Of a stretch of DNA of 64,000 nt, positions 1 to 42,402 are shown in pieces. The stretch lies in the NCBI RefSeq assembly GCF_963676685.1, contig NC_092348.1, forward strand, positions 5,022,001 through 5,086,000, written 5' to 3'. This DNA comes from Mytilus edulis. Lineage: Eukaryota. The number at the start of each line of letters is the position of its first letter. Position 1 is the first letter of the stretch. Below the pieces are notes generated by a model. The model ran no database searches, was not told the DNA's origin, and saw only the letters and a list, made by a program, of their open reading frames with translations. Both the position numbers and the translations under genes were made by a program.

Positions 1-134
1 TATTTTATTTCTTTAGCCGTGGATTATAAAATATCATATGTTGAATATTGTTTTTATTTCGCCCCCAATTTATTATTGTGAAAAAAACTATCTCGCCCCC
101 AAATTTATTATTGTTTAAATCTAATTCTTTGTAG

Positions 135-368
135 GTTCGCTTTCTATCGGATGAAAAAATTAAAGAAATCCACCCCATGATAGTTTGGTCGTTTGCAAAC
201 CGTGAGGCACGAAAGGGGCATTGGATGACATACGCCATTGATGCCGATCGATTCAGGCGACGTATTTTTACAATGGAGAAGATATGTACCCCAATTTTAT
301 CCCAAGACCACAGACAAAGGGTGTATAAAAACTTACGATCTTCAGATATTATAACCCCCAATTCGTAG
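135..368 (+). CDS. Terminal exon of a PPP1R15/GADD34/ICP34.5/DP71L-like PP1 regulatory protein (eIF2alpha phosphatase recruiter)
   Basis: Acceptor TTCTTTGTAG at 125-134 with a CTAAT branch-like motif at 121-125. The frame then reads VRFLSDEKIKEIHPMIVWSFANREARKGHWMTYAIDADRFRRRIFTMEKICTPILSQDHRQRVYKNL. This matches the GADD34 C-terminal pattern [K]VRF...VW...AR.G.W....D..RF.RRI......P.L....R.R. Confidence 0.85.
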   Translation, partial: VRFLSDEKIKEIHPMIVWSFANREARKGHWMTYAIDADRFRRRIFTMEKICTPILSQDHRQRVYKNLRSSDIITPNS

Positions 369-466
369 ATTTTCAGCCCCCTAGCACCTGTTCTCTCAGA
401 TCATTATAAATACACGTCTGGAATTGTTCAGGGTATCAGAATAAGAAATACAATCCAATCGTCAAC

Positions 467-1282
467 ATGCAGGAAGAGCACAGACAGTCCTTAAAGAGAA
501 ATTACGTGCAATTGGTAAAAGAAACACCAACAGATCTTGTTGTTGATCATTTGTACCAGAATGGGATCCTGACAGATGAGATGAGGGAAGAAATTTTACA
601 GAATTCAAACTCTTATTCGAAAACTAGACAACTCATTACAACACTTCAGAGAAGGGGCCCAAGGGCATTTGAATGTTTTTGTACAGCACTGACTGATGAA
701 GGCAAGTCAAGTTTAGTACATCTTTTGAAAGAGTCAAAGATTAAATCAGAAGTATCAAAAGATAGAGCCATGTTACCTATAGGAGGAGATATATTTGTCG
801 TCGTCAATGAATGGCGTGACAAGGTGTTGATTCACATCCGTAAATACGAAAAGAATTCAGCAGACGTGTATGTTCCTACAAAAAAGGGAATCGCACTGGA
901 TCTGAACCAATGGCAGCTATTAGAAATGTATGTTAACGAAATCGAAGAGGCTATAAGTCAGATGATTGATGACGTTACAGGGGTTCCTGAAATGACTTTT
1001 CATCTTGGTAGAGGTGTGTACGTTTCTGTTAACAAAACGTACCCAACAGTTGATGTCAGACAACGCTGGAAGATACCTGAAACCAATCAGATAGTTTCAA
1101 CAAAGAAGGGCATTTCTCTCACATATGACAAGTGGGAAGCGTTGAAAGGGACATTTCCTGACGTCAGAGAGACTGTTCCTGAAATAGAAACTACGACCCC
1201 TTGTATTTTATCAGAAGACCATCAAAACCAAGAAGGGATGCTCATGTGTTCAAACTGTAACCCATTTGCCGAACCTTTATGA
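467..1282 (+). CDS. CARD - PC4 - PC4 fusion protein with C-terminal Cys/His cluster
   Basis: aa 1-88 is a CARD-type death fold (LKRNYVQLV...VVDHLYQNGILT...LITTLQRRGPRAFECFCTAL). Two PC4/Sub1-like repeats follow (VVVNEWRDKVLIHIRKY..PTKKGIAL..QW; VSVN..TVDVRQRW..TKKGISL..KW). The C-terminus carries C..H..CxxC. TATA-like TATAAAT at ~405. Confidence 0.85.
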   Translation: MQEEHRQSLKRNYVQLVKETPTDLVVDHLYQNGILTDEMREEILQNSNSYSKTRQLITTLQRRGPRAFECFCTALTDEGKSSLVHLLKESKIKSEVSKDRAMLPIGGDIFVVVNEWRDKVLIHIRKYEKNSADVYVPTKKGIALDLNQWQLLEMYVNEIEEAISQMIDDVTGVPEMTFHLGRGVYVSVNKTYPTVDVRQRWKIPETNQIVSTKKGISLTYDKWEALKGTFPDVRETVPEIETTTPCILSEDHQNQEGMLMCSNCNPFAEPL

Positions 1283-1352
1283 AGGACGAGGTATAAAAGC
1301 GTTAAACCTGTCTGAGTGATCCATTGCGTCTCCTGTTGGTTCAGAACACAAC

Positions 1353-1862
1353 ATGAATTCAAGAGAAATATCGTTCGAGTCTGTAGAACGAAACGAACCT
1401 TTAATGCTTAATATGGGGCGTAAAATGCCTTCTCAGTTAAGTTTGGCGTCCAACATTTCCTCCATGTATGAAAAATATGCAATGCATTTAGACGTGATTA
1501 AATGGACTGGTGTCGTTGTACTTGTTGCTCTGATGTCATCAAGTTTAGCTGTAACCAGTGAAATGTCCCGGAGAGTATCCAATAACCAGACAGACTGTAA
1601 AAGGATTTCGATAGATCATACGAACAGAAATATGATGATGATAAACAATAGGACATGTAGATATTTTGAACAGTTTGATCTCCCGGGAAACTATAAAGTC
1701 ACTGTATGTTCAATCAGAAAACAAGTCTGGGTGGATGTTAAACATTTTAAAAAGTGCGGTATACAGTTCAACCCTAAACAATGGAAATATTGGCAGAGAT
1801 TGAAACCAAATATAAACAGTGCTATGAAAAGAGCTGGTGAAGAACTAAGACAAAAGACATGA
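1353..1862 (+). CDS. Predicted single-pass membrane protein with C-terminal PC4-like domain
   Basis: Hydrophobic segment VIKWTGVVVLVALMSSSLAV, then FDLPGNYKVTVC..KQVWVDVKHF..GIQFNPKQW resembling PC4. TATAAAA at ~1292, AATAAA at ~1906. Confidence 0.6.
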   Translation: MNSREISFESVERNEPLMLNMGRKMPSQLSLASNISSMYEKYAMHLDVIKWTGVVVLVALMSSSLAVTSEMSRRVSNNQTDCKRISIDHTNRNMMMINNRTCRYFEQFDLPGNYKVTVCSIRKQVWVDVKHFKKCGIQFNPKQWKYWQRLKPNINSAMKRAGEELRQKT

Positions 1863-2090
1863 TAAATTTGATTGATTATGATTATTTATGTATTTTTTTA
1901 TATTATAATAAATAAATTTTGAAAAAAAAGATCAAATGTTTTGTATTTATTGAAACTGTTACGAAAGCTTTGTTTCATTCGGTATAAAAGACAACTGCAG
2001 TCACAAAAAAAACGGAAATCTGCAACCGGAAATTACGAAAAAAACAAAATCGTTATAAATAACAGGTTCACATAAAGTGTATTATTCGAT

Positions 2091-3225
2091 ATGAGTTCGT
2101 TAAACTACGAGGACTATTTGCAAAAAATATGGCATGACCCTAAACATGCTGCTGCCTTTACGGGTTCTGACAAATTATATAACATAGTGAAACAAGAAGG
2201 AAAAATTAAAATAGGAAGGCACAAAATAAAGCAATGGCTACAAGACCAGGACACCTATAGTCTATCACGAAATAATGTACACAAATTTAAAAAAAGTCGA
2301 TATGTTGTGGATACAATAGATAGTCTCTGGGAATGGACTTAGCCCAACTAGATAAATTCCAAACCTTCAACTCGGGAAACAAATTCTTATTATTTGTTAT
2401 TGATTGTTTTTCAAAGTTTCTATGGATACAACCAATTGTGGATAAAACCCACACCAGTGTACTAAATGCCTTGAAAACAATTATGAGTGGAAAAAGGAAG
2501 CCTACCTCCATTCGATCAGACTTAGGAAAAGAATTTAAAAACCAATACGTACGGAAGTATCTTTCGAGCCAGGGGGTAAACACGTATTATTCTCTTAACG
2601 ATACGAAATGTGCAATTGTCGAGAGAAGCATTCGAACTGTTAAGTCGATTTTATTCAGGTATTTCAGACACAACCAAACGTATAAATACGTAAATGTCCT
2701 ACAAGATATGGTCAAGGGGTATAACGCAAGACCGCATCGTACACTTGGTGGTTTCTCACCGGTTGATGTGACTAAACGCAATGCAGATGAAGTTCGTTTA
2801 AGTGCGTATCTTGCCCGAAATCCTAAGAAAAGGGAAAAGAAAGTTATTAAAAAAACAGAGATCAAAAGAAGGAAAAAAGCTTTAGGTATAAAATAAATGA
2901 TCTTGTCCGACTTACATTCAAAAGTCATCCATTTCAACGTGGCTATCTACAGAAATGGACAGAGGAGATATTCAAGATTTCTCGTCGGTATTTTCGACAA
3001 AATCTTAGTCTGTATAAGGTCGTTGACCTTCAAAATGACGAAATAGAAGGGACCTTCCAAGATAGTGAAGTTCAGAAAGTACGGAAGGATGGCGATACCA
3101 TATGGAAAATAGAAAAAGTTGTTAAAAGACGACAAAAAAATGGCGTTAAACAGGTATTGGTTCGTTGGCTTGGCTACCCTAAAAAGTTCGACTCATGGGT
3201 TCCCGCTTTGGACATCCAGAAGTAA
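2091..3225 (+). pseudogene. Polinton retroviral-like (DDE) integrase with C-terminal chromodomain-like region; two frameshifts
   Basis: LWE/MDL, VIDCFSK, IRSDLGKEF and CAIVERSIRT motifs. The third frame reads FRYKINDLVRL...WTEEIFKI...WKIEKVVKRR...LVRWLGYPKKFDSWV, with a stop at 3223-3225. Frameshifts near 2333 and ~2880, the latter in an A-rich tract. Confidence 0.9.
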
Positions 3226-3270
3226 ATAAATAACACGACTTCATTTAACACAACGTCATTTTCGTTCAAG

Positions 3271-3732
3271 ATGAGTATACGTATGGTTCTCAAGTCATCC
3301 GATGGTTCCGATTTGTTTGAAAAGAACATGGCTCACGACTTCACTGTACAATTGGATAGGCAAATAAATCTTGAAGCATACTGGGTAGTGGCATTGACAG
3401 AAATCGATCTCACTTATAAAAGCTCGTCAAAATATATAGACGATGTTTACGTCTATTCAAACATTTGTGAAGAGAGTTTTGTCGGATCTTCTGAGAAACC
3501 AATCCTTCGAAAAATTTACATCAGTAAAGACGCAACGGAGGCACATGTTATTAACAAGAAAAAACACTACAGGTCACATATCATCTTTAACACTCCTTAT
3601 TATGTTCCTGTACGTTTGGGACAATTGAACCAAGTTCACATCTATTTAAAAGACGACAAGGGACAACCGTGTTCAGTTGTCAATTTGGACGCCTGTGTAA
3701 CACTTCACTTAAAGAAGTATTCCTTTCTGTAG
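3271..3732 (+). CDS. Polinton minor capsid protein (penton, single jelly-roll)
   Basis: N-terminus MVLKSS..LF..N...DFTVQL...INL...WVVALTEI and later YVYSNICEES.VG...PILR...YYVPV..VTLHLK, typical of Polinton pentons. Confidence 0.8.
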   Translation: MSIRMVLKSSDGSDLFEKNMAHDFTVQLDRQINLEAYWVVALTEIDLTYKSSSKYIDDVYVYSNICEESFVGSSEKPILRKIYISKDATEAHVINKKKHYRSHIIFNTPYYVPVRLGQLNQVHIYLKDDKGQPCSVVNLDACVTLHLKKYSFL

Positions 3733-3734
3733 AG

Positions 3735-4217
3735 ATGTCTAAATCTCCTTACATCAGTGATGCATTGGTATGGCAAGAGACCATGAATCAAGCCAAACAT
3801 TTAAAAAAAAACCACAATAATCAATTAGGAAAGGGTTTTCCTAGACGTTACAGCAGACATCGATTTGTCATTCTGAAGAAAAACTTACCTAAAATTGAAA
3901 CCAAGGTGGAGCAAATAGCCCCAACAGTGGCAATCGAAGAACGTGCTGCTTCAGAACTGAAACAACAGAAGAACGACAAAGACCCTCACGTCCTACAGGG
4001 AAAAAAGGCTAAATCTGACGGTATAAAAGGCAGGAAATCAAAACCAAAAAACAGTAAAGTTGGAAAGCTCAAAGAGGCAACAGGTAAAAAACAGAAAGCT
4101 AAAAACAGTGCACCGAGCAAGAAAAAACGGGCTACAAGGAATAAACCTCGGAAAATAGATTTCGAAACTGAACCTTCCATTTTTAATAGAGGAGCAGCAA
4201 AGAAATGGCGTATTTAA
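3735..4217 (+). CDS. Lys/Arg-rich putative virion core / DNA-condensing protein
   Basis: ATG at 3735 just after the penton stop; strongly basic C-terminal half; QLGKG candidate protease site; located between the penton and capsid genes. Confidence 0.6.
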   Translation: MSKSPYISDALVWQETMNQAKHLKKNHNNQLGKGFPRRYSRHRFVILKKNLPKIETKVEQIAPTVAIEERAASELKQQKNDKDPHVLQGKKAKSDGIKGRKSKPKNSKVGKLKEATGKKQKAKNSAPSKKKRATRNKPRKIDFETEPSIFNRGAAKKWRI

Positions 4218-5524
4218 ACGACGAAAATAAAGACATTAGCATTCCGATGGAGTTGGATTTGTTTGAAGAACCAAAAAATCAAGTAGCTATTGATCGGATA
4301 TTTTTTTCGGAAACTAGGCCAATGTCAAACTTTACTTCGCCAGATGTATCTACAGTAGATTTTTTCGTTTCTGGACAAGGTCCCGAATACATGGATTTAA
4401 GACGGAGTAGATTATATGTTCGTGCAAAACTTGTCAAGGCCGATGGAACGGCACTTGACGATACCGATACGTCGAGTATTGTAAATTTGCCTCTTCAAGC
4501 TATGTGGACACAAATGGATGTGTATATGAACAATAAACTAGTGTCTTTAAATACGTCAAACTACCCATGGAAAGCCTATATTAACACTATTCTTACCAGT
4601 GGGACCGATGAACAGAAATCACAACTTCAGTCACAATTGTTCATGAAAGATTCCGGTGATTTAGCGAATACGGATGGAAAAAACGGAGCTAACACTGGAT
4701 TGATTCTTCGTCGAGATTTTATCAAGAACAGTAGAGAATTTGAAATGGAGGGACCGCTGTTTGAAGACATATTTTCACTGGATCGCCATTTAATACAAGG
4801 CGTCGATTTGTATATAAAACTTTACCGTAGTAGCGACCAGTTTTTTGTCATTTCGGGTGAAGACGCCCCCGCCTACAAGTTACAGTTGTTAGATTGTGTT
4901 TATAAGGCATGCAAAATTAAAGTCGATCCTGGCATTATTGTTAACCATATGAAACAGATAGAAACCAAACCAGTCCGTTACTATTTTCAAAGGACAGAAG
5001 TGAAACGAAACACTATCAATAAAGACTCAAGGGAGTTTATTTGGGACAATATGTTCAACATCCGCCCAAGTACTCTGGTCTTAGGGTTGATCTCACAAGA
5101 AAGCGGAAATGGAACGTACGATACTAACCCTTTCTGTTTCAACCATTACAATGCAACTGATGTAGGACTGTACGTAAACGGAGAGAGCGTTCCAGCGAGA
5201 CCGTTAAAACTTGACTTTGGGGATAATAGACAGTATGCAACGGCATACGCTAATCTATTTGAGGTCTGTGAAAAAATGAATAGAGACGCAGGACTCACCA
5301 TTACTAGAGAAGACTATGGAAAAGGGTACACCTTGTATGCTTTTCCATTGGACCCGAAAGGACTTGGAGATGACTATATAAACTTGGTGAAGCATGGGAA
5401 CGTGAGAGCTGAAATAAAATTCAAGACGGGACTACCCTCTGCTGTCACGTGCATAGCGTTTGGAGTATTCGATTCATTTCTAGAGATAGACCATTCCCGA
5501 AACGTTCGCTATATACAGTCATGA
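4205..5524 (+). CDS. Polinton major capsid protein (double jelly-roll)
   Basis: 439 aa with ELDLF..P..Q, YMDL..SRLYV, NYPWKAYI.T.L, NPFCFNHYN and GYTLYAF.L motifs characteristic of Polinton MCP. Confidence 0.92.
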   Translation: MAYLNDENKDISIPMELDLFEEPKNQVAIDRIFFSETRPMSNFTSPDVSTVDFFVSGQGPEYMDLRRSRLYVRAKLVKADGTALDDTDTSSIVNLPLQAMWTQMDVYMNNKLVSLNTSNYPWKAYINTILTSGTDEQKSQLQSQLFMKDSGDLANTDGKNGANTGLILRRDFIKNSREFEMEGPLFEDIFSLDRHLIQGVDLYIKLYRSSDQFFVISGEDAPAYKLQLLDCVYKACKIKVDPGIIVNHMKQIETKPVRYYFQRTEVKRNTINKDSREFIWDNMFNIRPSTLVLGLISQESGNGTYDTNPFCFNHYNATDVGLYVNGESVPARPLKLDFGDNRQYATAYANLFEVCEKMNRDAGLTITREDYGKGYTLYAFPLDPKGLGDDYINLVKHGNVRAEIKFKTGLPSAVTCIAFGVFDSFLEIDHSRNVRYIQS

Positions 5525-5991
5525 ATGGGAACGAACTAGAATGTGCTATCCGATCCAATTCGTGTATACAAATGCAGGTGAAAGGAGTATTTGCAAGGAA
5601 CAATTTACCAACAGGAAAAATACATTACCCCAGTGCCTACATCGTCAACAACCATACGAGTGATCTGCCAGGGGAACATTGGATGGCAATTGTGTTAGAA
5701 AGTAAATCACATGGGGTGTTTTTCGACAGTTTTGGAAAACCACCGGAATTCTATGGAGAAGAATTAAAACATTTTCTGAACTGTTACGTGAAACAATACG
5801 AGTGTTTTAATGTACAAGTGCAACCAAAGTCGTCTTCTCATTGTGGATTGTTTGTGTTAACTTTTCTCATGTTGAATCTATGTTTTAAATATTCATTAAA
5901 TAGTATTGTCAATATTTTCGATTCAAACGTTTATGCTAACGACCATTTTGTATTTAATTTTGTCAACACTTATTATAGTTTGTGTCAATAA
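5521..5991 (+). CDS. Adenain-like cysteine maturation protease
   Basis: PGEHW (catalytic His), FFDSFG (Asp) and QVQ..SSHCG (Gln/Cys). ATG at 5521 overlaps the capsid stop (ATGA). Confidence 0.92.
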   Translation: MNGNELECAIRSNSCIQMQVKGVFARNNLPTGKIHYPSAYIVNNHTSDLPGEHWMAIVLESKSHGVFFDSFGKPPEFYGEELKHFLNCYVKQYECFNVQVQPKSSSHCGLFVLTFLMLNLCFKYSLNSIVNIFDSNVYANDHFVFNFVNTYYSLCQ

Positions 5992-6035
5992 AATATATCA
6001 TGCGTCCATCGTGTTAAATTATCTGTCCTGTGTCA

Positions 6036-6737
6036 AATGCTCTCATACCTTATCCGGACGTCAAGATGACAACTTCTCGCGATATTTTACCTTTTCAAAG
6101 TCCTTGCACTTTCATGATATCGGGAGCGACTCAAAGTGGAAAGACTACATTTGTAATGAAATTACTAAGGCAAGCATCTGTCATGTTTAATACCCCACCG
6201 GTTCAAATAGTTTACTGTTATACGGAGTTTCAACCCATTTTTGACCAAGCTCAACAAACTATACCCAATTTGTTACTGTACGAGGGCTTCCCCACAAGAA
6301 GTGACATTATAGAATGGACCAACCCGGACAAGCACACAGTCCTTGTACTGGATGACATGATGAGATTGATCAGTAAGAGTGACGAGGCTTTACACCTGTC
6401 AACCGCGCTATCACATCACAGGAACTGTTCGGTAATTTTCATAACCCAAAATCTGTTTGAAAAAGGAACACATTTCAGATCGATAAGTTTGAATACCCAT
6501 ATTTTTGTACTTATGGCCAATAACAGAGATAAAAAACAACTTCTCGCCTTTGCAAGTCAGGCATTTCCCGGTGAGACGAAATATTTCAAAGAGGCCTATG
6601 ATAAAGCCATCAGTTATGTTTCAGTTGGGGGATATCTGGTATGCGACTTATCCCCTTATACGGATAAAAAGTACCGCTTGCGTACTTCGATATTTCCAAC
6701 TGATGACGTCACCATTGTATATGCCCCAAAGAAATAA
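6036..6737 (+). CDS. A32-like genome packaging ATPase
   Basis: Walker A GATQSGKT, Walker B LVLDD, and HHRNCSVIFITQN..RSISLNTH. The start codon is uncertain (6030-6066). Confidence 0.92.
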   Translation, partial: NALIPYPDVKMTTSRDILPFQSPCTFMISGATQSGKTTFVMKLLRQASVMFNTPPVQIVYCYTEFQPIFDQAQQTIPNLLLYEGFPTRSDIIEWTNPDKHTVLVLDDMMRLISKSDEALHLSTALSHHRNCSVIFITQNLFEKGTHFRSISLNTHIFVLMANNRDKKQLLAFASQAFPGETKYFKEAYDKAISYVSVGGYLVCDLSPYTDKKYRLRTSIFPTDDVTIVYAPKK

Positions 6738-6779
6738 AACCGGAGACAAGCACACCTACACCACCAGTTCACAAGAAAG

Positions 6780-7097
6780 ATGCCGTCAAGGATCACCTCA
6801 TACAGTACGTTTCTGAAATTCGTATATGATGCTAACCCTAGACAACAGAAAGTGTTAATTCAGGCAGCTTCGAATGATCAAATCGATATCATATCGGAAA
6901 TAGCATTAAATATATACAGAGGAAGCTTACCGGTGAACCCCTCTCATATAAGAAAGCTTAGATCTTACATCCTTCACATTCGTTCCTTGTCATCCCGATC
7001 GATCACATACACACGGAAAAGGAATATTTTAGTGAGACATCCTACTCTGACTTGCCTTTTGATTAAACCGGTTTTGTCACTTCTAAACGAACAGTAA
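6780..7097 (+). CDS. Small conserved Polinton protein of unknown function
   Basis: ASNDQIDIISEIALNIYRG.LP pattern resembles small ORFs seen in animal Polintons. Stop/start overlap TAATG with the next ORF. Confidence 0.65.
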   Translation: MPSRITSYSTFLKFVYDANPRQQKVLIQAASNDQIDIISEIALNIYRGSLPVNPSHIRKLRSYILHIRSLSSRSITYTRKRNILVRHPTLTCLLIKPVLSLLNEQ

Positions 7098-7618
7098 TGG
7101 CACAAGAGCTCATACTCGTGTCTAGGGAAAGATACGAACGTCTCATGAATCAACCAGAAACTCACCATCAAACAGACTTGGGTGAAAAGGACAGATTGAA
7201 AAACGACCACGACGAAAAACCCATAGCTAACTTTATGCCAATGATAGATCGTTCTTTACCCCAAAAAGTAAAGAAACGCGCGAACGATCTTTACAGATTC
7301 GTTTTAGCTCAAGACAACAACCTGTTGAATCATAATGAACAAGGCGAATTATTAGTAAACGGGAAAACAATGACTGGCTCGCACATTGTAGATCTTATTC
7401 ACCACGTCGTGTCAACACTCCATAGAAAAAAACCAATTGGAAGTTCGGAGTTTCAAGCCATTTTGAGAAAACTGAATGTACCAAAGAGATTATTTGCAGA
7501 ACGGAGGAAAAAACCTTTAACACAGACGGGAGGCTTATTCGTACAGGGGAAGGGAAGGAGAGACGTCATTCCTGGCATATCACATAAAAAAGAACAGATT
7601 CGTTGGATAAAATACTAA
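7097..7618 (+). CDS. Conserved Polinton protein of unknown function
   Basis: HNEQGELLVNG..MTGSHIVDLIHHV motif resembles ORFs of animal Polintons. Ends in W..Y just before the convergent polyA region. Confidence 0.65.
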   Translation: MAQELILVSRERYERLMNQPETHHQTDLGEKDRLKNDHDEKPIANFMPMIDRSLPQKVKKRANDLYRFVLAQDNNLLNHNEQGELLVNGKTMTGSHIVDLIHHVVSTLHRKKPIGSSEFQAILRKLNVPKRLFAERRKKPLTQTGGLFVQGKGRRDVIPGISHKKEQIRWIKY

Positions 7619-7688
7619 CTTTATTTTTACAACATATACGATATTTTTTATTCAATAAAATCATCGTGTAATAGTCTTTTTCTTTTTT
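7619..7688. terminator. Convergent polyadenylation region between the structural gene block and pPolB
   Basis: 70-bp AT-rich gap with AATAAA on the plus strand (~7654) and TTTATT (minus-strand AATAAA) at ~7620 and ~7647. Confidence 0.6.
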
Positions 7689-18189: not shown

Positions 18190-19563
18190 ATGCAGAAATT
18201 TGGGGCTTTTTTAATCCTTTCAAAAAAAAATTAAATTCTCAGACTTCTACAGTTGATCAAGCTTATCCTAAACTTTTTTCAGATAGATTACATATGAAAT
18301 TTTGTAAATTATTACTAGGTTTGGGGAAAAGAGCAACAAACCTTGCCACTCTTTCAGAACTTGGGAGATTTCCTTTACATTTTGATATCACCAAATCTAT
18401 GATCAGATACTGGCACCGGCTTGAGAATTTGGGTTCATCCTTTCCCTTACTAAAAGATGCATATTTAGAGTCAAAGCTATTATTTGAATCAAAAATTCCC
18501 TCTTGGTATGGATCTTTAAACTATTTGCAAAAAAAAATTAATGGGGTTGACAGTCTAACCTTTGCAAGCAACTTTAGATTCAAAATTTTAATTAAAAAGT
18601 TTTTGTATGAGCACTATGAAATACAATGGAGAAACCAAATGCACAATTGTGCTGATGGGAAGCTTTGTAGCTATAGCACTTTTAAGACTCATTTTGGTCT
18701 TGAAAGATACCTTACTATATTACAATCACCTGAGCAGAGGAGAAATTTCACTCGATTGCGTATTTCTTCTCACAGACTAAGAATTGAACAAGGTCGCTAT
18801 CAGGGTACTCTCCGACAAGACAGAATATGTCTCAGGTGCACCTCAAATGAAGTTGATGATGAAAAACATTTTTTATTCTCATGTACATCATCACAAGATA
18901 AGAGAAATTATTTGAATTCCACTATTGACTTACTATGCCCAAACTTTAAGCATTTGATTCCTAGTCAAAAACTGATATGGCTTCTTAATGTAGAGAATCT
19001 TGATATTTTGATATCTGTCTGTGAGTTAATTGATGAAGATAAAATATAACTTTAAAGATAAATATTTAATCAGGCTCTCTGCACTAGGCACAAGGTTGGC
19101 ATGGTGGGGTACAGGACACATCGTACAAGTTCTATTACCTTCTTGTTTGCGATATTATTATTTTTTTTATTAAACTGGTAATATTTTATCTTTTTTGTAA
19201 TTTGTGCACTTTGGCATGTCAATTAGCATTGTCCCTTGGTGCCTCTTGCAGTTGTGTCACTTTAAATAGTACTGACTCCTCTGCACCAGGCACGAGGATG
19301 ACATACCATTTATGTGCAACTTCTTACAATATCTTACCATATCATTAATGTCCCGAAACACATTTTAATATGCACCCACCATGCCATATAGCACCGTCCC
19401 TAGGTGCCTCTTGCAGTTCAGCTAGATATATTTAGCCTACTCACAGTATTCTTTTTTTGTTACTTTCCAGAGGTGTGCCTGAGACAAAGGTTTTATATAT
19501 ATACTAATATGTGATAACTGTTGTTTCTTATTTGTGTTTGTAACTTGTGTTGTTTATTATATT
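18190..19563 (+). mobile_element. 3' part of a non-LTR retrotransposon (ORF2 C-terminus 18294-19049 plus 3' UTR; tail probably resumes at 24263-24357)
   Basis: KFCK.LLG...TN.A...ELGRFPL, RLRISSHRLRIE.GRY and RIC..C..EVDDEKHFLFSC are typical of the post-RT region of LINE ORF2. An AATAAA plus (CTT)n tail lies right after the Gypsy insertion. Confidence 0.8.
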
Positions 19564-19614
19564 TGTTATATTTCTTATTTTGCAAATTCGGAATTTCAAA
19601 ATATATCTATAACA

Positions 19615-21836
19615 TCTAGTACGACATTTGGGTTTGTTTTAGGTCAATTAGATAGTCAAGGTCGAGAGCATGTCATAGCTTATGGAGGTAGAAGTTTGTC
19701 TAGGGCAGAACGAATCTGGTGCACCACAGAACAAGAATGTTTAGCTGTTCTAGAGGGTGTCAAACATTTTCGTGCTTATTTGACTCGTCGATTCAGAATT
19801 TTCACAGATCACAAGGCTCTTAAATATTTGATGGATCAAAAGGTTGCAGTCGGTAAATTAGGTCGTTGGGCTCTTAAATTACAAGACTTCGACTTTGATA
19901 TCGTTCACAAACCAGGTAAAAACAATGAGGTGGCAGATGCTCTCAGCAGACGCACATATACTGAAGTGGCTGATGAAAATAAAACATCGCCAGTGAAAGT
20001 GTTTGTTTCAAATGCAAATGAAAATGAGTTTCTGTCAGATACAATTGAGGTTAATGCTTGTGAGACAGATCTAGAGGTAGACAATAAAGGAGACGAGGAC
20101 TTGGAGAGTGTAGAGCTCGAATTATTTTATGGAGACTATACACTTCTTGCTCCTCTAGATCCTGAAGTCGTCAATAGTGAGTTATTGGACATTCCTGCTG
20201 TAAGTCAGTTACAACAAGTTGACCCAGATTTTCAGGATATGTTTAATTACTTGCAAAATGACGTTTTACCTCAAAGTGAAAAGGTTCGACAAAAAGTTCT
20301 AGCAGAATCTCAAGATTACTCGGTTTGTGATGGTGTTTTGTATAAATGGTTTCAAAAGAGGTTTAAAACGAGTCCAGATGAAAAGTACATTAAACAATTA
20401 TGTCTTCCATTAGCTCTCAGACGTCATGCTTTGCTAGCTTATCATGACTTGAATTATGGTGGTGCACACTTAGGATTGGACAGGGTTTTGGCTGCTTTGA
20501 GACAAAAATATTTTTGGCCAAAAATGCACCAAACAGTCAAAGACCATGTTCTTTCTTGTGACAGGTGTCAACGAATTAAGGTTGACCATACACGCAAAAA
20601 TCCACCTTTAAATCCTTTGCCAGTGGTAGGTCCATTTGATCGATGGCATATGGATTTCTTAAAGCTGAGCAAGACAAACAAAGGTGAAACATACTTGCTC
20701 GTTTTGGTTGATAGTTGTAGTAAGTGGGTTGAAGCATTTGCTATGAAAACACAAGAGGCTTCTGAAGTTGCAAAGGTCTTGTTCAAAGAGGTTTTCTCTA
20801 GATTTGGCGCAGCAAGGTTTTTGGTTAGTGATCGTGGAAAAAGCTTCATGAATAACTTAGTTCTGTCGTTATGTGAGATATTTGATGTTACAAGATATCA
20901 TACTAGCTCGTACCATCCTCAAACAAATGGGTTAGTAGAAAGGTGCAACTCAACTCTGATAAAGTCTTTCAGAGCATACTGTGATAAGGCTCAAAATAAT
21001 TGGCCCGATAAATTACCCGGAATTTTAATGGCTTTACGCAATTCTCCTTCAACTCAATCAACTGAGTTTTCTCCCTTTCATTTGCTGTTTGGTAGAGAAA
21101 TGAATCTACCTTTTGACACTTCTGTTACACCTAAACAGAATTTGTCAGCAGATGCCAAGCTTCAAATGGAAGAAGTTCTATCAAATCTAAAGATCACACA
21201 AGATCTTGCCACTAAAAATATGTTAGAAAAACAGTTAAAATCTAAAGAGCGATACGACCGAAATTCAAAAATTCCACAATTTAAAGTAAGGGATTTAGTT
21301 TTACTTCGGCAACATGTGGTTCCCGTCGGTCGCTCACCGAAATTGTAGATAAGTACAAAGGGCCTTATTACATAACTGAGTTGGGACCAAATTACACATA
21401 CAAATTGAGAATGTGCAGCACTAATAAAGAGGTAAAATCGATGATCAATGCAAAAGAAATATTCCTTTACAAGGATCCAAGAGATCATCAGCTGCAACCC
21501 AATGAGGTGGTACAAAATGTAGCTTATGATACTGATAGGGTAGATCAGCATGATCAAGGTGATGAGAATGTGCCTCAAGCACAAAATAGGGAGAATGAAA
21601 CCACTGATGGTAATGATGATCAGATAGAAGATCATCAGTTTTATAAAGCGGAAAAACTTTTGAAGTTAAAGCGCTTACAAGGTAGACGACATTTCCTTGT
21701 AAAATGGGCGGACGGCTCAAAACCCACATGGGAACCAGAGGAATATGTTTCAGAACATTTAATCAGAGTATATTTTAGCACACATACAAATACAGGGACT
21801 AAACGAAAGAGAAAAACATGCATACGGCAAAACTAG
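19615..21836 (+). pseudogene. Gypsy pol fragment: RNase H, integrase, chromodomain; frameshift at ~21345
   Basis: IAYGGRSL, FTDHKAL, WHMDF, LVSDRG and YHPQTNGLVER. After the frameshift it reads YKGPYYI and FYKAEKLL...FLVKW..PTWEPEEYV. Confidence 0.88.
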
Positions 21837-23075
21837 TCACACAAAACTATTAAAGTATTTTTCATTCCTTGAAATAAAAGAAAAAATATATAATAAAGCA
21901 CATTAGCATATACACATTTTTTTCTTTTGCACCAGTGCTGAAGTCTTTGAATTGTTTTTATAGTGTTATTCTCTAGATTATATCTTTTAGGAACTTTAGA
22001 TTGTTTTCAAAAACCATAAATTATTTATTCAAAATTGTGGTGTTTTGTTACCCTTGACAGATTTATATCTGTTGTCTAATAGTGCTAAGAGTATGCGCAT
22101 GCTCATCTAACAACTCATCACACATTTTTTTTTTCATTTTTACAAGTTAAGGTTAAATCACACTTAGAAACTTTTCATTGATGACAGTTTTTTTTTAATG
22201 GTGTTAATATTTTCTTGAATGATACAGACTGAAAGCCAAAGCATAAAGAGAAAGTACACACACATTGTGGACAGTTTTCAACGAAGAGTTACATAGAGTC
22301 ATGACTATTGTTGAAGTACGTTTTTTGTTTAATTTATTTGTATATAATATGATAATTTTCTTATATTTTTGTGGTTCAAAGCAAGAACATTTACTTCAAC
22401 ACTTGTTATTTTACAGTACAAAAGAAAGCAATATGTGCGTTTGTACCTTCTTTTATTTTTGCAAGCCGCGACGGCTTTTCCTTCCGAGCTATTGGTTCTA
22501 TAATTTTGAGCAAGTTTATGAAAACAATGCTAATATTCAACTGACTATTTTATTTTGGTTAAGTTTGGTTGATTTTTTTTTTAGCAAACCGCATGTAGAA
22601 CCAAATTCAAATTTGTTATCACAAAAATTCCGTGGATAGTACATGTGTTACAGTGCCAGTCCTTATTCTGCCTCTGTTTCCATCCTATTTTACTATAAAA
22701 CCTCAATGTATTTATAACATTGTATTGACAAAAGTAAGTAAACTGTCAAATGTCAGATTTCACGATACCCATGTCCAGCAATGCAGAGTATGAGTTTTTA
22801 AAGTATCTTATATATTGGCTTAAATTCAGCAAACTCACGATATTTTTTTCAAACATAAATGGCATTTATTCAGCACCTATTAATGTGGCTCAATGAGCAT
22901 ACTACCTTACACAACAATAGCAGAAAACAATAGAACATTATATTTGTGACAATGTATATATATTTTATGAGTGTATATAAAATTCATTAACTTGATTTTC
23001 TAATCTTATATGTCTTATATTTGTAGTTGATGTTATGTGGCTTTGGGGTCAAAGCCAATTAAGGCAGAGGGGAGA

Positions 23076-24258
23076 TGTTATAGATATATTTTGAAATTCC
23101 GAATTTGCAAAATAAGAAATATAACAGCTTTGCAAACTTTCTTTTATTAAATATTTTATTTTTTATTCTCAAAATGAATTTGTAAAATTGGACATTTTAG
23201 AAGAAAATAGATTTTACAGATATTTGACAAATATTGATAATTATTCATTCATTAATTATACATGCTATATTTTGAATAAAAGAAAGAGTGTAGGCAATTA
23301 GGCCTATTGTCAAAATTACAAAGATTGTCGCAACATAGGTATACGAAAATCAATAATTTAGATTAAAGTGTCAGCTTGGTTGACAAGACAAAATTATGAG
23401 TGACCAATTAAAATGTTGTGGTCAGCTACGAAATTATGTAACGATAATTTTCATTGGTAAAACGAAGAAAACCTGGGATCTCTAAGCACGTGAGCAACGA
23501 CCTTTTTAAGCTAGTGTTTTGGGCTATTCGTCAGTTGCCATGAGATCTCAGTTGTAATAAAATATAGTTATTTTGGAATTCTTCGTTTTTACCAGGTAAT
23601 TCATTATTAATATTTTAAAGCATTCTTTTTATGAAAATTACATTTCACATTTACTTTTAATTAAGTTTTATTTCTTTAGTTCTATTTATTTAAAATGAGC
23701 GTATTTAGTTTATTACATTACGATTAAATAGATGATTTTTTAAGTGAAATATACAGTAAACATAAATTCCGTAAATGTTATTTATTTCATTAATTTTCAT
23801 TATTACATGCAAATTTGTTTACAGGAGATTTGTGAATTTGACGCATAATTTATTTGTAGTAAAGTTAAATTCTGTTATTTGGTTATATTTAATATTCAAC
23901 GAAGTTTAAAGAAATCTTTGTTTGTCACTTTGGTTTACCTTGACAACGCAACAGAACACAAAGAAAATATTTGTTGTTTCATGTATATTGAAATCGTACC
24001 GATGCAGGATTGATCTCCAGAACAGAAATATTTGCGTATTACGTAATAGCAAGAAACATTTAATATATTACAGCTTGACATTATCTATGTATGATGAACT
24101 ATAAATATTGTGAAATATATTGTATGCATTTATATGAAATTGTATTATAGAGTTGCCATGAGATCTCAGTTGTAATAAAATATAGTTATTTTGGAATTCT
24201 TCGTTTTTACCAGGCCAGCTAAAGTCCAGATGACATAGGCTGAAAGTCAAGTACGACA
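23076..24258 (+). repeat. 3' LTR (TGT...ACA) containing an internal ~65-bp direct repeat (~23532-23596, ~24150-24214)
   Basis: Starts immediately after the PPT. The right boundary is inferred from the CA plus TATT duplication. Confidence 0.6.
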
Positions 24259-25395: not shown

Positions 25396-25935
25396 TAGGT
25401 ATTTTTTTCAATTTACACTATACACGTTTCAATAATACAAAAAAAAATATCTTAAACAATAGTGATGGTTACATGACAATTTATTAATTTTATAATCCAA
25501 AAACTACGTAAAAATTAAATACTGATGCCATAGTTATAGTTTCCATCGATGGTTAAAATCTTGCAGGTAGGCTTGGGGTGACATTCACTTCCACACGGTA
25601 GCATAGCTTTTTTGCATATAAGAAATTTGTGCATGATCTTTTTCATTTACACCTTTTGTGCTATGAAAAGTGAAAAGCTAGCCTTTTTGCAGCTGCGTAC
25701 AGTGATACCGAGGTCTTTGGCCATTCTGATGTCTACGTTGTTTTTAAGAAGCTCTAGATCTCAAATATCGTAAAATGACTGCAATAAATCATATTCACAG
25801 GACAACTTAAATATACAATGTTACTTTCCAGTGACTTCTTGTGTAACAGTTCATTAAGATTTTTTTAGTCGACGTATTGCCATTCACTCGTAATAACAAA
25901 TCGGTAGTGACCATCGGTATATAATAAGTGTTTAC

Positions 25936-28900
25936 TATGGAACGCCATGACTGTCTTCTGATGTTGATTGTTTAATATGTTCGGTGCTTTATGCATTATG
26001 TTCAGTAGTATGTATATTATGTTCAGTAGATATCCTATTATGTTCAGTAGTTATTACATTATGTTCAGTAGTTATTACATTATGTTTAGTAGTTTTTACA
26101 TTATATTCGGTGCTTTGGTTATTATGTTCAGTAGTTTCATTATTATATGCAGTGGTATTTAAATTATGTTCGATACTTCTGACGTTATATTCAGTACATT
26201 TTTCATTATGTTCAGTACTTTCGACATTATGTTCAGTAGATTCAATATTATTTGCAGTACATTATGTAATACGTTCAGTAGTCCCGCTTTCTTTATATTC
26301 AGTAGATTATTAATTATGTTCAGTAAAAGCATCTGTATTATATTCGGTTCGTTCAACTTTATGTTCAGTGGTTTTATCATTATGATGATGTAGTAAAAGT
26401 CGGGAAGTCAATAACGGAAATTGTCGGAAAAAAACGAAGGCGGATATTTTTGACGGACGTTTTATTCATGAACACCTGTACGTGATTGAATTAAAATGGA
26501 AGAAATGGAAGCAGTTTTAAATCGGTGTGGTTTACGTTCCCAAGTTGGCATTTTTCACAAGAAAAAAATAACTCCTGACTCAATTTGTAAGTTGTCGCTA
26601 CAAGATTTCGCATATTTAGGTATGACTGACAGGAGAAAAATAATGGAATTAAGAATAGCTTGTGTTTATTTCAGTAGCAATATTTTGACTGAGTAATAAC
26701 AAGTTTTTCATTCCCAAAGAAACACTGGAATCCCTGCTTGAAATCGATTTAACTGTTTTAAAAATATTCCCTGTGGACAACCCCCCCTTTATTTGGTGCT
26801 CTCTATTTTCAACCCTCGAATTAAGCTTTCCAATCTTATTAAAATTAAAACCTTGCTTTCTAACCAATCTGTTCATGCACCGGACCGGCAACTTTCTTTA
26901 TTTAATACGAAAATCTAAAGTGCCGTTATACACATACATGTTGTTTGCTTGGAGTATACGCCTGCAAAGAAAGAAATAGCCCAAGTCCGAAGGCACAAAT
27001 AAGAAAAAAAAGTTGTATGGCAAAGGGTGCCGGGGTAAATCTCTGTTTTCAAAATATACATGAAATATTTGCCACTGCCCCTTTTTTCTTCTATGAATTC
27101 TAATCCTGAGTTTTCTATCTGTTACATGCCAAGAAATCCGAGCAAAAAATTCCGGTCGACCTCCTACGGCACCCATTAGTATTTAAAGATTTGATTTCAT
27201 TCAACAAATTAATTTAGGACCTCCATGTACGTGTCATGTAGAACACAGCTATTTACCGAATGGTCAATATTAATCTTCCATGTAATTTGCTCTATGTGAT
27301 GTTTGCAGAATTTCAACGGAGGTAATTTCTTGGCATGATCAATTGTGTGTTTACCCTCCCCTTTTCTCCTTTGATATAAAGCGTTCCAATGAATAACAAA
27401 TCTACAGTAATCCGAAAAAATTAAAGGCGACAATAAAAATACATGTAAATCTTGTAAAATAATCAAAATGTTTCTGTGTATTTGGTTTTGGTTTGTTCTT
27501 CAAAATACCACTTAAGGCCAGTGTCTTGCCTGAATCAGAGAAGCTTGCTAGTGAAGACGTGCCCTTACTCTAAGATCGATTATGAATAATAAGAATTTAT
27601 GAACCTCAAGAAATCTGACGTACCCATAATTGACAATCCTGACACGAAATTATCACTTAACATTTATCCGTTTCAGATCCGTTCATCATCCATTTTATCC
27701 GTTATACGTCCGGTAGAAGTCCGTTTCACATTCGTTCAACATCAATTTTATCCGTTAAACCACAAGCAAATGCCCCCAAAGGACAGTGTCTGGACTGAAT
27801 AAAAGCTGCTTGATTGTGAAGACGTGACCTTACTCTAAGATCGATTATGAATAATAAGAATTCATGAATCTTAAGAAAGGCTAATTGGCATTTCAGACGC
27901 GAAATTTTCAATTGGCATTTATCCGTGTAAGATCCGTTCATCATCCGTTTAATCCGTTATACGTCCGGTAGAAGTCCGTTTCACATTCGTTCAACATCTG
28001 TTTTATCCGTTAGACGTCCGTTAGACGTCCGTTAGAAGTCCGTTGGTGAATTTATCTGCCAGACCTCAAACGGATGTATAACGGACACGTTACGAATACA
28101 AAACGGAAGTGAAACGGACAAGTTCCGTACAAAACAGACGCCTACCGGACGTTCAACAGACATTTTATCCAATGGACGTCAGTTCAACGTTTTGAACATG
28201 CTCATACGGACGTCGACGGATTAAACGTACGCTAAACTGACATGCAACGGATATGGACGGACGTCTAACAGATAAGAACGGACGTCTAGCGGACATGAAC
28301 GGATTGAAAAAAGTTATCCGTTAGGCATTTGTTCGAGCTATCTTAGTCAAAATATTGCTGCTGAAATGAACACAAGCTATTCTTAATTCCATTATTTTTC
28401 TCCTGTCGTTCATACGTGTACCTAAATATGCGAAATCATGTAGCGACAACTTACAAATAAAGTCAGGAGTTATTTTTCCTGGTGAAAAATGCCAACTTGG
28501 AAACGTAAACCACACCGATTTAAAACTGCTTCCATTTCTTTCATTTTCATTTAATCATGTAAAGGTGTTCATGAATTAAACGTCCGTCAAAAATATCCTT
28601 GTTCGTTTTTTTCCGACAATTTCCGTTATTGACTTCCCGACTTTTACTACATCATCATAATGATACAACCACTTTTACTACATCATCATAATGATAAAAC
28701 CACTGAACATAAAGTTGAACGAACCGAATATAATACAGATGCTTTTACTGAACATAATGAATAATCTACTGAATATAAAGAAAGCGGGACTGCTGAAGGT
28801 ATTACATGATGTGCTGCAAATAATATTGAATCTACTGAACATAATGTCGAAAGTACTGAACATAATGAAAAATGTACTGAATATAACGTCAGAAGTACCG

Positions 28901-29177
28901 AACATAATTAAAATAACACTGCATATAACAATGAAACTACTGAACATAATAACTAAAGCACCGAATATAATGTAAAAACTACTGAACATAATGTAATAAC
29001 TACTGAACATAATGTAATAACTACTGAACATAATGTAATAACTACTGAACATAATGTAATAACTACTGAACATAATAGGATATCTACTGAACATAATATA
29101 CATACTACTGAACATAATGCATAAAGCACCAAACATATTAAATAATCAACATCAGAAGACAGTCATGGCGTTCCATA
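25936..29177. mobile_element. Non-autonomous IS3EU-type fold-back DNA transposon
   Basis: Termini TATGGAACGCCATG / CATGGCGTTCCATA and an exact 6-bp TSD GTTTAC (25930-25935, 29178-29183). The ~750-830 bp inverted arms contain 21-bp tandem repeats (ATTATGTTCAGTAGTTATTAC). Confidence 0.85.
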
Positions 29178-30574
29178 GTTTACTATATATTTGACATTTA
29201 AGTATAATTAATTATGTGAAACTAATTACTTCTTATTTTTATTTAGCTTATCTTTTTATTATAATATAATAATAAAATTACCTACATGTATATGATAGCG
29301 GTTTTTTTTAATGAACGGTCATACATTGTACCATATGAAGCGTTTAGAAGTATGAAAAGTAAACTGTAATAGAATGTTAATTACCCCGACCATACTCGTA
29401 CGGTCAGACCATTTTGAAAAATGTTGTGTGTGCTGTTTTTAGACCCTTTTACAACGAAATTTGTTTTACATGCACACGTATAAAAATGGCGGTTTTTATC
29501 CAACGATCATAGGTTTGAACGTAGTTTTCAATTTAGACTCGTTTATATTTTTTCGTTTGGGCTTGTATCATATTTTCCCTCCGGTTTATATGATCCGTTC
29601 ATCCTATATTGACTCTTAAAATTCAAGAGTCTATCTAAAAATGAGGGTACTTTTTATATGGCCTTCTAAATACCGTTTCGATCCCTAACATCACTGTCAT
29701 CACTGAAGAGACATTTATTGTCGAAATCCGGATCTGGTGTACTAAAAAAATATTGTCACCGTATGTTTGTGGCATAACATCATGGCCACAAGTTATTTTT
29801 TTTCTGTTTAGTATTAAATTTATATTAAGATCCATTTTATTACATCTTGTGATCAATTTTATTTGGCAATCGCCAATGGCAGTCAGCAGGGTTAAAGAAC
29901 ATCAGTTGTTCGACCTGTTAGTCAAAATTAATGCGTTTTGTTTAAATATACTTTTTCACTTTTTTGGTCTTTTGGACAAATGTTGTTTGTGCTGTTTTTA
30001 GACCCTTCTACAACGAAATTTGTTTTACATGCACACGTATAAAAATTGCGGTTTGAACGTAGTTTTCAATTTAGACTCGTTTATATGTATATTTGCCCTA
30101 CCGTTGTCAAATTTGAAATATTATACAAACTTGGATCGGTTAGGACATTTTTGATTTTTGTTTGTTTGAGGACTGCCCTCAATGCAGTTATAACATCTAA
30201 ACTGTCACAACTTTTGGAAAATTAGAGTTGTGCCAGTTCACATCGGAAATAACTATTTTCATTTGGCATATCTTTGCGCCGTGTTTGGAAATTTTAAAAT
30301 TGTATCAGCGTCTGTGGTGTTCGCTTAAATTGTATAAATTTCGAGATTTAGAAAAAGTTTCTCAGTTTGAATATTTTGACATGATTCATTTGACATAGTG
30401 CTATTATTGAAGATGGATATCTGTTATCCGAAATATCTAATATTTGTTCATTTTATAGTTATTGTACCCTTTTTGACTTGTTATATATTATATTTTGTAG
30501 TGTACAGAATCATATCACATGATCCATCGCCCTGTAAGATTGATCGTTGACTATTTATTCAGTCATTTAATATA

Positions 30575-40824: not shown

Positions 40825-41295
40825 ATGTTTCAGTTACTCTGTTGTCTCCTTTGTGTTGCTGATCATGACGTTACAGGAATACCTTACCCAGGCGATGATG
40901 CTTCTGTGCCTGAACTAGTCCAATACTATCATCAATTATGCTACACGTCCCTTCAAATATGTGGATTTCTCTTGTTTGTTCACGGAACATTCATAAGTTG
41001 TTCCATGTTAAAAAGACTTAAGAGAAGATTAAATATCAGACGGCGTAACAACCAGTCGCCATTACCTACAGTTGTAAGGACAATCCTGGCTTTACACCGT
41101 AATGGCCTGTCTAATGTTGGATACAGGTATATGTGGAGGACTCTGAACATAGGCTTTGGACTTTGCGTCACACAATCAAGAGCAAGGCTTTGCTTAAGAA
41201 CAAGAGACCAACAGGATGTACTTAACAGATCGCATCGAGTTCTTCGAAGGAGAGTGTACTACAATAGAGGACCAAACTATCTGATTCATGTCGAT
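40825..41295 (+). pseudogene. Truncated inverted copy of the transposase 5' half
   Basis: Nearly identical to the first ~157 codons of ORF 52665-51415 and breaks at the first catalytic HVD. Confidence 0.9.
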
Positions 41296-42402
41296 ATTCA
41301 TAGATCAGTAAAAAAAATATATTGTACTCTTGCATCCAATCACGGCGTTTCTAAGTTGACTTCCTTCATCTGCCTTGGGTACACAAAAGGCCAACCTAAT
41401 GTTGGGGAAATGTAATATATTGTAGTACCGGTTTCCCTTTAAATGATGTTTTTAAAAATTTTTTTTTTTACAAAACTTTGGAATTTGCCCAACAAATTTT
41501 GCATGCAGTATCACAATAATAATGATTTGTCCACTGAAACGTCAAATACTACTTTTGAATCATATATTTTCTTGTTTTCCAAAAACAAATGCGTTAAATT
41601 TCCATCTTAGAAACTGCCAACTTTAAGTTTGAGAGTTTTACTCGAGGATGGTATTAAATTTATGTCTTCATCAGTCCAATGATCCTTGATTATATGTGCA
41701 TCGAAAATTTTAATAAAAAGAGTCAATAAATAACAAAATGATTTTGGTTTTGGGATTTAAAGGTGACTACTAACACCGTAAATTGAGGTGTATACCCAAT
41801 TAAAAGTGCTAAAATACAAAAATGTGACCACAAAACTTTTTATAAACAGAAAGAAATTTAAATCTATATACTAGTCTATCATTTAAAACAATTTGCAGCC
41901 GTGTTTTATTCCGGAACTGTTATATTATAAAAAAGAAGATGTGGTATGATTGCCAATGAGGCAACTATAAATATCCACAAAAATGACCCAAACATTAACA
42001 ACTATAGGTCATCGTACGGCCTTCAACAATGAGCAAAGCCCATACCGCACAGTCAGCTATAAAAGGCCACGATAAGACCGGTAAAACAATTCAAACGAGA
42101 AAACTAACGGCCTTATTTATGTAAAAAAAAATGAACATTAAACTGTTAACTAAGCGTCTCTTTTGAGATCAGTTGCAGTACTGTAATGCCAATTATATAA
42201 AGAGGCACAGCCTGGACACTGTGTTATGTCTGGACGACCTGATCACTATAAGGCATCAGCCACATTTTGTGGCTGGGTCCTAATAAACCAATACATAACT
42301 GAACATACAAAATGCGTTTACAAAGAAAGATACAAGAATAACAGATACTAATAACATCTGTTTCATTGTTAATTTTGACTCAATCAGTGCCCAGATGAAG
42401 TA

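Follow-up and report, generated by a model that had tools for sequence, protein, structure and literature searches.

Three accessory genes beside the integrase of a mussel Polinton: a PPP1R15-like exon, a CARD-PC4-PC4 fusion and a putative membrane protein

Whether animal Polintons are working viruses is a largely open question. Herpesviruses and asfarviruses recruit PP1 against the eIF2-alpha shut-off, and poxviruses do so as well. Among the closest described systems, adintoviruses carry Bcl2 and IAP homologues (PMC8502044, Section 3.2), and a Bcl2 label stands next to the integrase in the Beta adintovirus maps, as judged from the label order in the available text of that paper. Ranaviruses, for which vCARD and vIF2-alpha knockouts are described, provide a precedent for both antiviral arms being addressed by one virus; viral CARD proteins for which data exist are mostly anti-apoptotic (both from the accessible part of PMC4974522). 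The PPP1R15 core of about 70 residues is described as necessary and sufficient in vitro (PMC10998612, partial text); without the middle region, the C-terminal core alone is reported as weakly or marginally active in cells (PMC8633803, partial text). A role in replication was proposed for the PC4-like single-strand-binding protein of phage T5 (PMC8545432, accessible part). For bivalves, the available text of one study reports abundant Polinton-type regions and contains no CARD, PC4 or GADD34-type terms (10.1101/2025.04.19.649669). The accessible part of another describes a PC4 'expansion' with up to 18 members in M. galloprovincialis (PMC9223095), and oyster PERK is reportedly induced by poly(I:C) (PMC9680061).

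We analysed a stretch of 64,000 nucleotides of Mytilus edulis DNA, referred to as the window. Positions 1-15998 represent the right part of a Polinton, the left end of which lies beyond the window edge. The three coding stretches of interest, genes 1 to 3 (Table 1), are located inside this Mytilus-type element, which shows the gene order of Beta adintoviruses; the assignment to that group was made by gene order alone, against the label text of Supplementary Figure S2 of PMC8502044. Domains of the integrase (rve, E 1.3e-7; Chromo, E 5.2e-8), the protease (Peptidase_C5, E 1.4e-4), the packaging ATPase (Pox_A32/FtsK, E 0.002-0.003) and the protein-primed family B polymerase (DNA_pol_B_2, E 6.8e-22 and 1.7e-9) were recognised with Pfam, and the double jelly-roll capsid protein gave a match under the cut-off (DJR-like, E 0.029). 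Since the integrase is split over three frames, it is broken in this copy. The motif at the right end is presumably the terminus of the element, as we take Polinton termini to have this form; no matching left terminus occurs in the window or in 1-15800. An LxCxE 'oncoid' motif was not found in element frames of at least 50 aa.

Table 1. Features of the Polinton and of its three accessory genes (positions within the window).
Feature	Position	Strand	Basis or remark
Splice acceptor ending the intron before gene 1	110..134	+	Branch-point-like CTAAT, pyrimidines, TAG
Gene 1: last exon of a PPP1R15/GADD34/DP71L-like PP1-targeting subunit, 77 aa	135..368	+	First residue is the V of V-x-F
TATA box candidate, gene 2	405..411	+	ATG 62 nt downstream
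Gene 2: CARD-PC4-PC4-Cys/His tail protein, 271 aa, intact	467..1282	+	Pfam and structure model; CARD aa 1-90, PC4 pair aa 98-239, tail C-x5-H-x8-C-x2-C
TATA box candidate, gene 3	1292..1298	+	ATG 61 nt downstream
Gene 3: 169-aa protein, hydrophobic aa 49-67, degenerate single PC4-like domain aa ~104-168	1353..1862	+	
Two overlapping AATAAA polyadenylation signals	1907..1916	+	Would be shared by genes 1 to 3
rve integrase with C-terminal chromodomain	2091..3225	+	Pfam; three reading frames
Virion module in Beta-adintovirus order, every ORF open	3271..7618	+	Starts: penton-like 3271, basic 160 aa 3735, DJR capsid 4205, protease 5521, ATPase 6066, then two small ORFs; penton and small-ORF names from position alone
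Protein-primed polymerase (polB) with intron-like donors and acceptors	7689..12682	-	Pfam
Right terminus-like motif, inward reading AGTAGAGTAGT	15988..15998	-	

The layout described by an earlier, sequence-only reading could be reproduced: the genes are consecutive, lie on the + strand and are separated by gaps of 98 and 70 bp, with a further 228 bp between the third coding stretch and the integrase. TATAAA was confirmed at both places named before (about 405 and 1292). In the region 1-2200, which was picked after the fact, TATAAA[AT] is about sixfold enriched (6 observed vs 1.03 expected; 1 of 2000 shuffles reached 6), and 7% of 76-nt windows of the element hold such a box. The signal noted near 1906 was found as AATAAA at 1907 and 1911, the sole AATAAA in 1-2200, so that transcripts of all three genes would be 3'-coterminal. 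Acceptor-like AGs are present at 399 and 431 before gene 2 and as CAG at 1344 before gene 3, and the site at 431 is the entry point of gene model P0002; splicing from a shared leader is thus an alternative to separate promoters.

Together with the start context CAACATG common to genes 2 and 3 and the similar TATA-to-ATG spacing, the tight co-oriented layout and the single poly(A) signal speak for the interpretation given in that reading, namely that the genes are inherited together and expressed early as a cassette against host defence (translation shut-off plus CARD signalling) and so are the mark of a true infectious cycle. The Bcl2 label beside the Beta adintovirus integrase (PMC8502044, label order), the ranaviruses, in which a vCARD accompanies an antagonist of the eIF2-alpha pathway (PMC4974522, accessible part), and the open capsid module point in the same direction. 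We nevertheless regard the cassette as unlikely: gene 3 lacks any defence-related feature, 6 of 22 gene 2 relatives and another adintovirus have the tandem PC4 but no CARD, the integrase is broken, and the numbers of close relatives are unequal, with 16 of 22 for gene 2 (Mytilus-type or CARD-bearing), 2 for gene 3 and none for gene 1, with the reservation that the databases used cover short or spliced genes poorly.

For gene 1, the relation to PPP1R15/GADD34/DP71L was borne out for the core, while the description as a whole gene was not, as the stretch is a last exon without a start codon. Pfam PP1c_bdg matches with E 4.4e-6 (27 bits vs a cut-off of 26.1), and matches in the PDB are PPP1R15A, PPP1R15B and DP71L (7nzm_C, 4v0u_E, 9nb9_B). 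An in-frame TAG at 132-134, directly before the exon, is the AG of the acceptor, which is the sole one in 1-300 with at least 12 pyrimidines and also has a branch-point match. The first exon is presumed to lie upstream of the window; inspection of 1-134 gave no start with an in-phase donor. The first in-frame ATG (177) would yield a 63-aa product and was judged unlikely as the true start because the PP1-docking V-x-F is omitted. Several database matches start at the same conserved Met, probably as artefacts of ORF callers.

The position of the intron is informative. V-x-F stands at the start of the exon, and the residues of the RVxF motif before it would lie in the presumed upstream exon. P0037, a genomic-type ORF, equals P0045 (248 aa) over 33 residues from V-x-F onward; just before this point Q is found in P0037 vs KK in P0045. 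This split suggests an intron at that point of RVxF in cellular PPP1R15 genes. Q precedes V-x-F in 7 of the 150 listed matches, some of which are probably not intron read-through. With its acceptor at the cellular intron point, gene 1 would be a last exon captured along with its intron, and the kept intron indicates capture from genomic DNA.

A profile search gave 771 relatives at E<=0.001, the best being 45-58% identical; none of the best 150 reaches 60% identity, and a tree of 150 PPP1R15 cores gave no resolution. No close relative was found among proteins of 42-135 aa, longer forms being covered by the 50%-cluster search alone. The frame is open from end to end of the core, and all columns that are invariant among 12 aligned sequences are conserved in it, which at only 45-58% identity suggests selection. 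Of the ten positions that PMC5346070 quotes for the eIF2-alpha-binding motif, nine are retained. The mismatch is an Ala at the [Rg] position, where 88 of 106 matching hits have Arg and 18 lack it; 44 of the 150 listed relatives do not match even the relaxed motif. That gene 1 belongs to the Polinton is indicated indirectly: there is no terminus or poly(A) signal before gene 2 (37 bp separate the gene 1 stop from the gene 2 TATA, with no poly(A) signal between), and its CpG o/e of 1.19 resembles that of the core genes of the element (0.82-1.13).

In principle, gene 1 could be a dead passenger that is never spliced to a working start, either an exon left behind from the host or the last part of the host's own PPP1R15 gene beside a rearranged element, with genes 2 and 3 as ordinary replication and membrane accessories. 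The window holds no start or first exon, the intron sits at a host-type position, close relatives are missing among the 42-135 aa proteins and the copy is decaying, as seen for the integrase. The open core with its invariant columns at this divergence suggests selection, however, and between genes 1 and 2 there is neither an element terminus nor a separate 3' UTR or poly(A) signal for gene 1. We consider this explanation quite unlikely. Gene 1 rather looks like a real counter-defence gene, probably encoding an eIF2-alpha phosphatase adaptor.

The domain composition CARD-PC4-PC4 stated before for gene 2 was verified by Pfam, with E 9.6e-18 for the CARD and E 2.1e-18 for the two PC4 stretches. 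The structure model has a pLDDT of 87.7, falling below 50 in the linker (aa 91-96). The tandem PC4 nucleic-acid-binding module accounts for two thirds of the protein, and its repeats are modelled as an intramolecular pair of beta4-alpha units (beta-beta-beta-beta-alpha). In the model, aa 96-239 superimpose on PURA repeats I-II with Z 12.3 and rmsd 3.5 over 135 residues, and the CARD on that of Apaf-1 with Z 17.4 and rmsd 1.1 over 90 residues. Each repeat keeps one of the two aromatic residues of PC4 that we take to be DNA contacts (repeat 2 assigned by eye). The sequence-only reading had overlooked the C...H...CxxC tail, which is kept in 17 of 22 relatives and is a putative zinc site.

These 22 relatives were matches among 234 candidates, the named ones from Mytilus species. 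Ten comprise a full CARD and two PC4 stretches, 4 are truncated or frameshifted Mytilus models, 2 begin at the PC4 part, and 6 are distant proteins without CARD, including those of scallops. Database names of the relatives include CASP2 and LZTFL1; downstream LZTFL1 exons were not found by a composition ranking of 807 frames, an insensitive approach. When the PC4-tail parts of 18 sequences (P0001, P0002, P0012, P0014 and P0015 omitted) were placed in a tree, one branch (98/91) separated CARD-bearing from CARD-less sequences, as would fit the CARD having been gained or lost once. As CARD and PC4 parts diverge alike, down to 39% and 33-43% identity, respectively, the fusion is old and maintained. 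The CARD-coding DNA contains 2 CpG vs 9.8 expected, the PC4 part 17 vs 21.5, a contrast of small counts found after the fact that hints at a methylated host gene as the source of the CARD. In the M. trossulus model P0012, a CARD-PC4 part of 69% identity is joined to antisense polB (window 7804-7959; 58% identical) in the same relative orientation as in this element, so that a second species also shows a link between CARD-PC4 and a Polinton.

The best viral structural match of gene 2 in BFVD was MOSUB of a Branchiostoma lancelet adintovirus (E 3.6e-8). With the MOSUB label in adintovirus maps, this identifies the PC4 pair as a known Polinton gene, and the occurrence of tandem PC4 without CARD in the lancelet adintovirus and in six of the relatives indicates a role in replication or transcription. 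The CARD sequence is closest to RAIDD, caspase-9 and Apaf-1, so that death is a likelier target than RIG-I/MAVS signalling. From domains and model we assign gene 2 as a putative ssDNA-binding replication or transcription factor with a probable CARD decoy.

The same architecture would also fit an opposite function, a DNA-templated death switch of AIM2-like logic: the PC4 pair would array CARDs on ssDNA and activate an initiator caspase, so that host and resident element alike would be defended when another DNA virus superinfects the cell. A death fold linked flexibly (aa 91-96) to a tandem nucleic-acid-binding fold, the affinity of the CARD to RAIDD, caspase-9 and Apaf-1 and a fusion kept over long divergence are all in line with such a switch. 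It would, however, adjoin a probable stress-response antagonist, and the viral CARD proteins with data mostly act against apoptosis (PMC4974522, accessible part), so that we rate it as very unlikely and retain the decoy.

Gene 3 had been described as a TM-PC4 protein. The hydrophobic segment is present (mean hydropathy 1.8), whereas the PC4 call is weak and has no Pfam match; the relative P0024 gave E 0.19. Several comparisons still lean towards a PC4-like domain. The C-terminal part was assigned to PC4 by hhalign at 51%, and a custom PC4 HMM scored 10.1 bits, above all 3000 shuffles (maximum 7.1) and above all 353 unrelated window frames. Atlas features gave PC4 with 0.88, and 10 of the 10 top family matches were PC4, which serves as a lead only. 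The domain lacks a loop of about 10 residues. PDB profile and whole-protein Atlas searches returned nothing usable, and the fold model (pLDDT 38) is unusable. Only 2 of 18 candidates were relatives (99% and 74% identity); two N-glycosylation sequons and four Cys after the hydrophobic segment are shared with the 74% relative. By its sequence, gene 3 appears to encode a membrane-anchored, degenerate PC4 protein, probably a glycoprotein of type II membrane topology, and nothing in it hints at a function in immunity.

With these assignments, the proposal of two antiviral arms is upheld in part. Counteraction of translation shut-off is well supported at the sequence level by the core and the 9/10 motif, and a CARD arm directed at death is plausible; signalling of the RIG-I/MAVS type is less likely. 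None of the features of gene 3 points to a part in defence. The step from the three genes to a real infectious cycle is the weak one, because suppressing stress shut-off and apoptosis would likewise benefit an element that moves purely within a genome, and the integrase of this copy is broken. What evidence there is for an infectious cycle comes from the capsid module, and the three genes strengthen it little. The region thus holds one probable and one possible counter-defence function; a three-gene anti-defence unit is not shown.

The explanation that we favour, with somewhat better than even confidence, is that the left arm of the integrated mussel Polinton contains three accessory genes of mixed function, which were acquired separately and have a poly(A) site in common. 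Gene 1 would be a host PPP1R15 gene taken as genomic DNA, intron included. Its product, if spliced and active as we suppose, would dock PP1 via RVxF and bring it to phosphorylated eIF2-alpha, so that translation continues, as with the homologues ASFV DP71L and HSV ICP34.5. Gene 2 would be the tandem-PC4 (MOSUB-type) protein of Polintons, the repeats of which are modelled as one unit resembling Pur-alpha or a PC4 dimer and most likely bind the strand displaced in protein-primed replication, or melted promoters. One lineage would have gained a host apoptotic CARD on the tandem PC4, most likely as a decoy for initiator-caspase or apoptosome assembly. Gene 3 may be derived from PC4 by loss of the loop that contacts DNA and acquisition of a membrane anchor. 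A bolder version, in which CARD-tipped, zinc-stabilised tandem-PC4 proteins coat the displaced strand, the DNA of the element serves as scaffold for a CARD array, and this array soaks up initiator caspases at the onset of replication or senses DNA and kills cells superinfected by other viruses, beside the first Polinton stress-response antagonist of the ICP34.5/DP71L type, taken over with its intron, seems unlikely to us.

With a PPP1R15 mimic, if true, Polintons would join the herpes- and asfarviruses that turn PP1 against the eIF2-alpha shut-off, and the mimic would be a small, directly assayable gene reporting on stress-based antiviral defence in bivalves. The tandem-PC4 family would be a candidate for the single-strand-binding protein needed by protein-primed replication. 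Proteins named CASP2 or LZTFL1, and part of the PC4 'expansion' in bivalves (PMC9223095, accessible part), may be Polinton genes.

A PPP1R15/GADD34 or CARD gene was not found in the main text or readable supplement text of PMC8502044 (Figure S1 and Table S1 excluded). The available main text of PMC11071296 contains no CARD, PC4 or GADD34, and that of PMC11131425 no CARD or PC4. Polintons were not mentioned jointly with PPP1R15/GADD34 or CARD-PC4 among the best-ranked literature matches, a search with most subscription papers outside its scope. In a prokaryotic genome collection, two scans gave 35 and 547 pattern matches, with 0 confirmed relatives.

Compared with known systems, the element resembles Beta adintoviruses and animal Polintons (PMC8502044) in the core gene set and order and in accessory genes beside the integrase, with anti-apoptotic Bcl2/IAP homologues and a MOSUB (PC4-like) gene as counterparts there; it differs in having the PC4 pair fused to a CARD and in intron-bearing genes. 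The lancelet adintovirus MOSUB (A0A5H3CIS2, 203 aa) shares 196 aligned columns with gene 2 at 17% identity and, being shorter, apparently lacks a CARD. Gene 1 has the V-x-F docking motif and the W...D..RF..RI core in common with ASFV DP71L, HSV ICP34.5 and PPP1R15A/B, and is distinguished from them by its location on a Polinton, the intron inside RVxF and the Ala at a motif position usually occupied by Arg. The CARD fold of gene 2 is shared with viral CARD proteins (ranavirus vCARD, iridovirus CARDs, equine herpesvirus E10), with BFVD structural matches of E 1.6e-3 to 6e-2, but the iridovirus matches are CARD-only proteins of 93-95 aa, whereas gene 2 combines its CARD with a tandem PC4 unit in one protein. 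Paired beta-beta-beta-beta-alpha units as in gene 2 are found in Pur-alpha repeats I-II, the human PC4 dimer and the PC4-like SSB of phage T5, to which gene 2 adds the CARD and the Cys/His tail. The adintovirus accessory region itself is known; the new parts appear to be the capture of an intron-bearing PPP1R15 gene and the CARD-PC4-PC4 fusion.

The polymerase gene of the Polinton, a minus-strand gene for a protein-primed family B enzyme, appears to be spliced, judging by the donor-like and acceptor-like sites listed in the table below. Introns in a Polinton polymerase gene are a point deserving attention. A C2H2-finger-like motif is found at the start of the same gene.

Features of the element and of the remaining window (window positions)
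Feature	Position	Strand	Details
Polymerase gene with splice-like sites	7689-12682	-	donor-like 9649, 9167; acceptor-like 9423, 9027, 12683
Small ORFs, right arm of the element	13343-13908; 15124-15390	-; +	70-aa ORF, 117-aa ORF, one coiled-coil-like exon
Gypsy-like integrase and chromodomain remnants	19831-21836		within 19483-23126
Foldback-like element	25926-29179		long inverted arms made of 21-nt tandem units
ORF in two copies	40765-41412; 51418-52725	+; -	N-terminus common to both
Tandem array	61600-64000		GC-richer, strong AT skew, open repetitive frames

In the right arm, the 70-aa ORF exhibits a hydrophobic C-terminus and a weak match to baculovirus Orf78 (E 0.02); the 117-aa ORF gave no match in the Pfam search. 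In the stretch 15982-17846, the right terminus directly adjoins a further ORF, which by eye, through one motif, resembles a reverse transcriptase fragment. This ORF is without Pfam match and partially duplicated with a spacing of about 890 bp. Elsewhere in the window, perfect inverted repeats of 54 nt were found in the Gypsy-like region (19564-19617 and 23073-23126), and the longer copy of the two-copy ORF contains the integrase core domain PF24764 (E 3.2e-35).

Relatives of the CARD-PC4 gene carry the database name CASP2 in M. coruscus, and the M. edulis model named LZTFL1 (P0002) consists of LZTFL1-like exons fused to the CARD-PC4 gene at acceptor 431 (431-1282). Both names look like mis-annotations of CARD-PC4 proteins. 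One copy of the gene may lie within or close to LZTFL1.

The intron preceding the PPP1R15-like gene contains two occurrences of a motif of about 22 nt with a C5 run (59-115), of which a fainter echo is seen at 355, close to the stop of this gene. An out-of-frame ORF of 9 codons (151-180) ends in a stop that overlaps ATG 177 of the gene (ATGA). This ORF may be due to chance; control by uORFs is known for host PPP1R15A.
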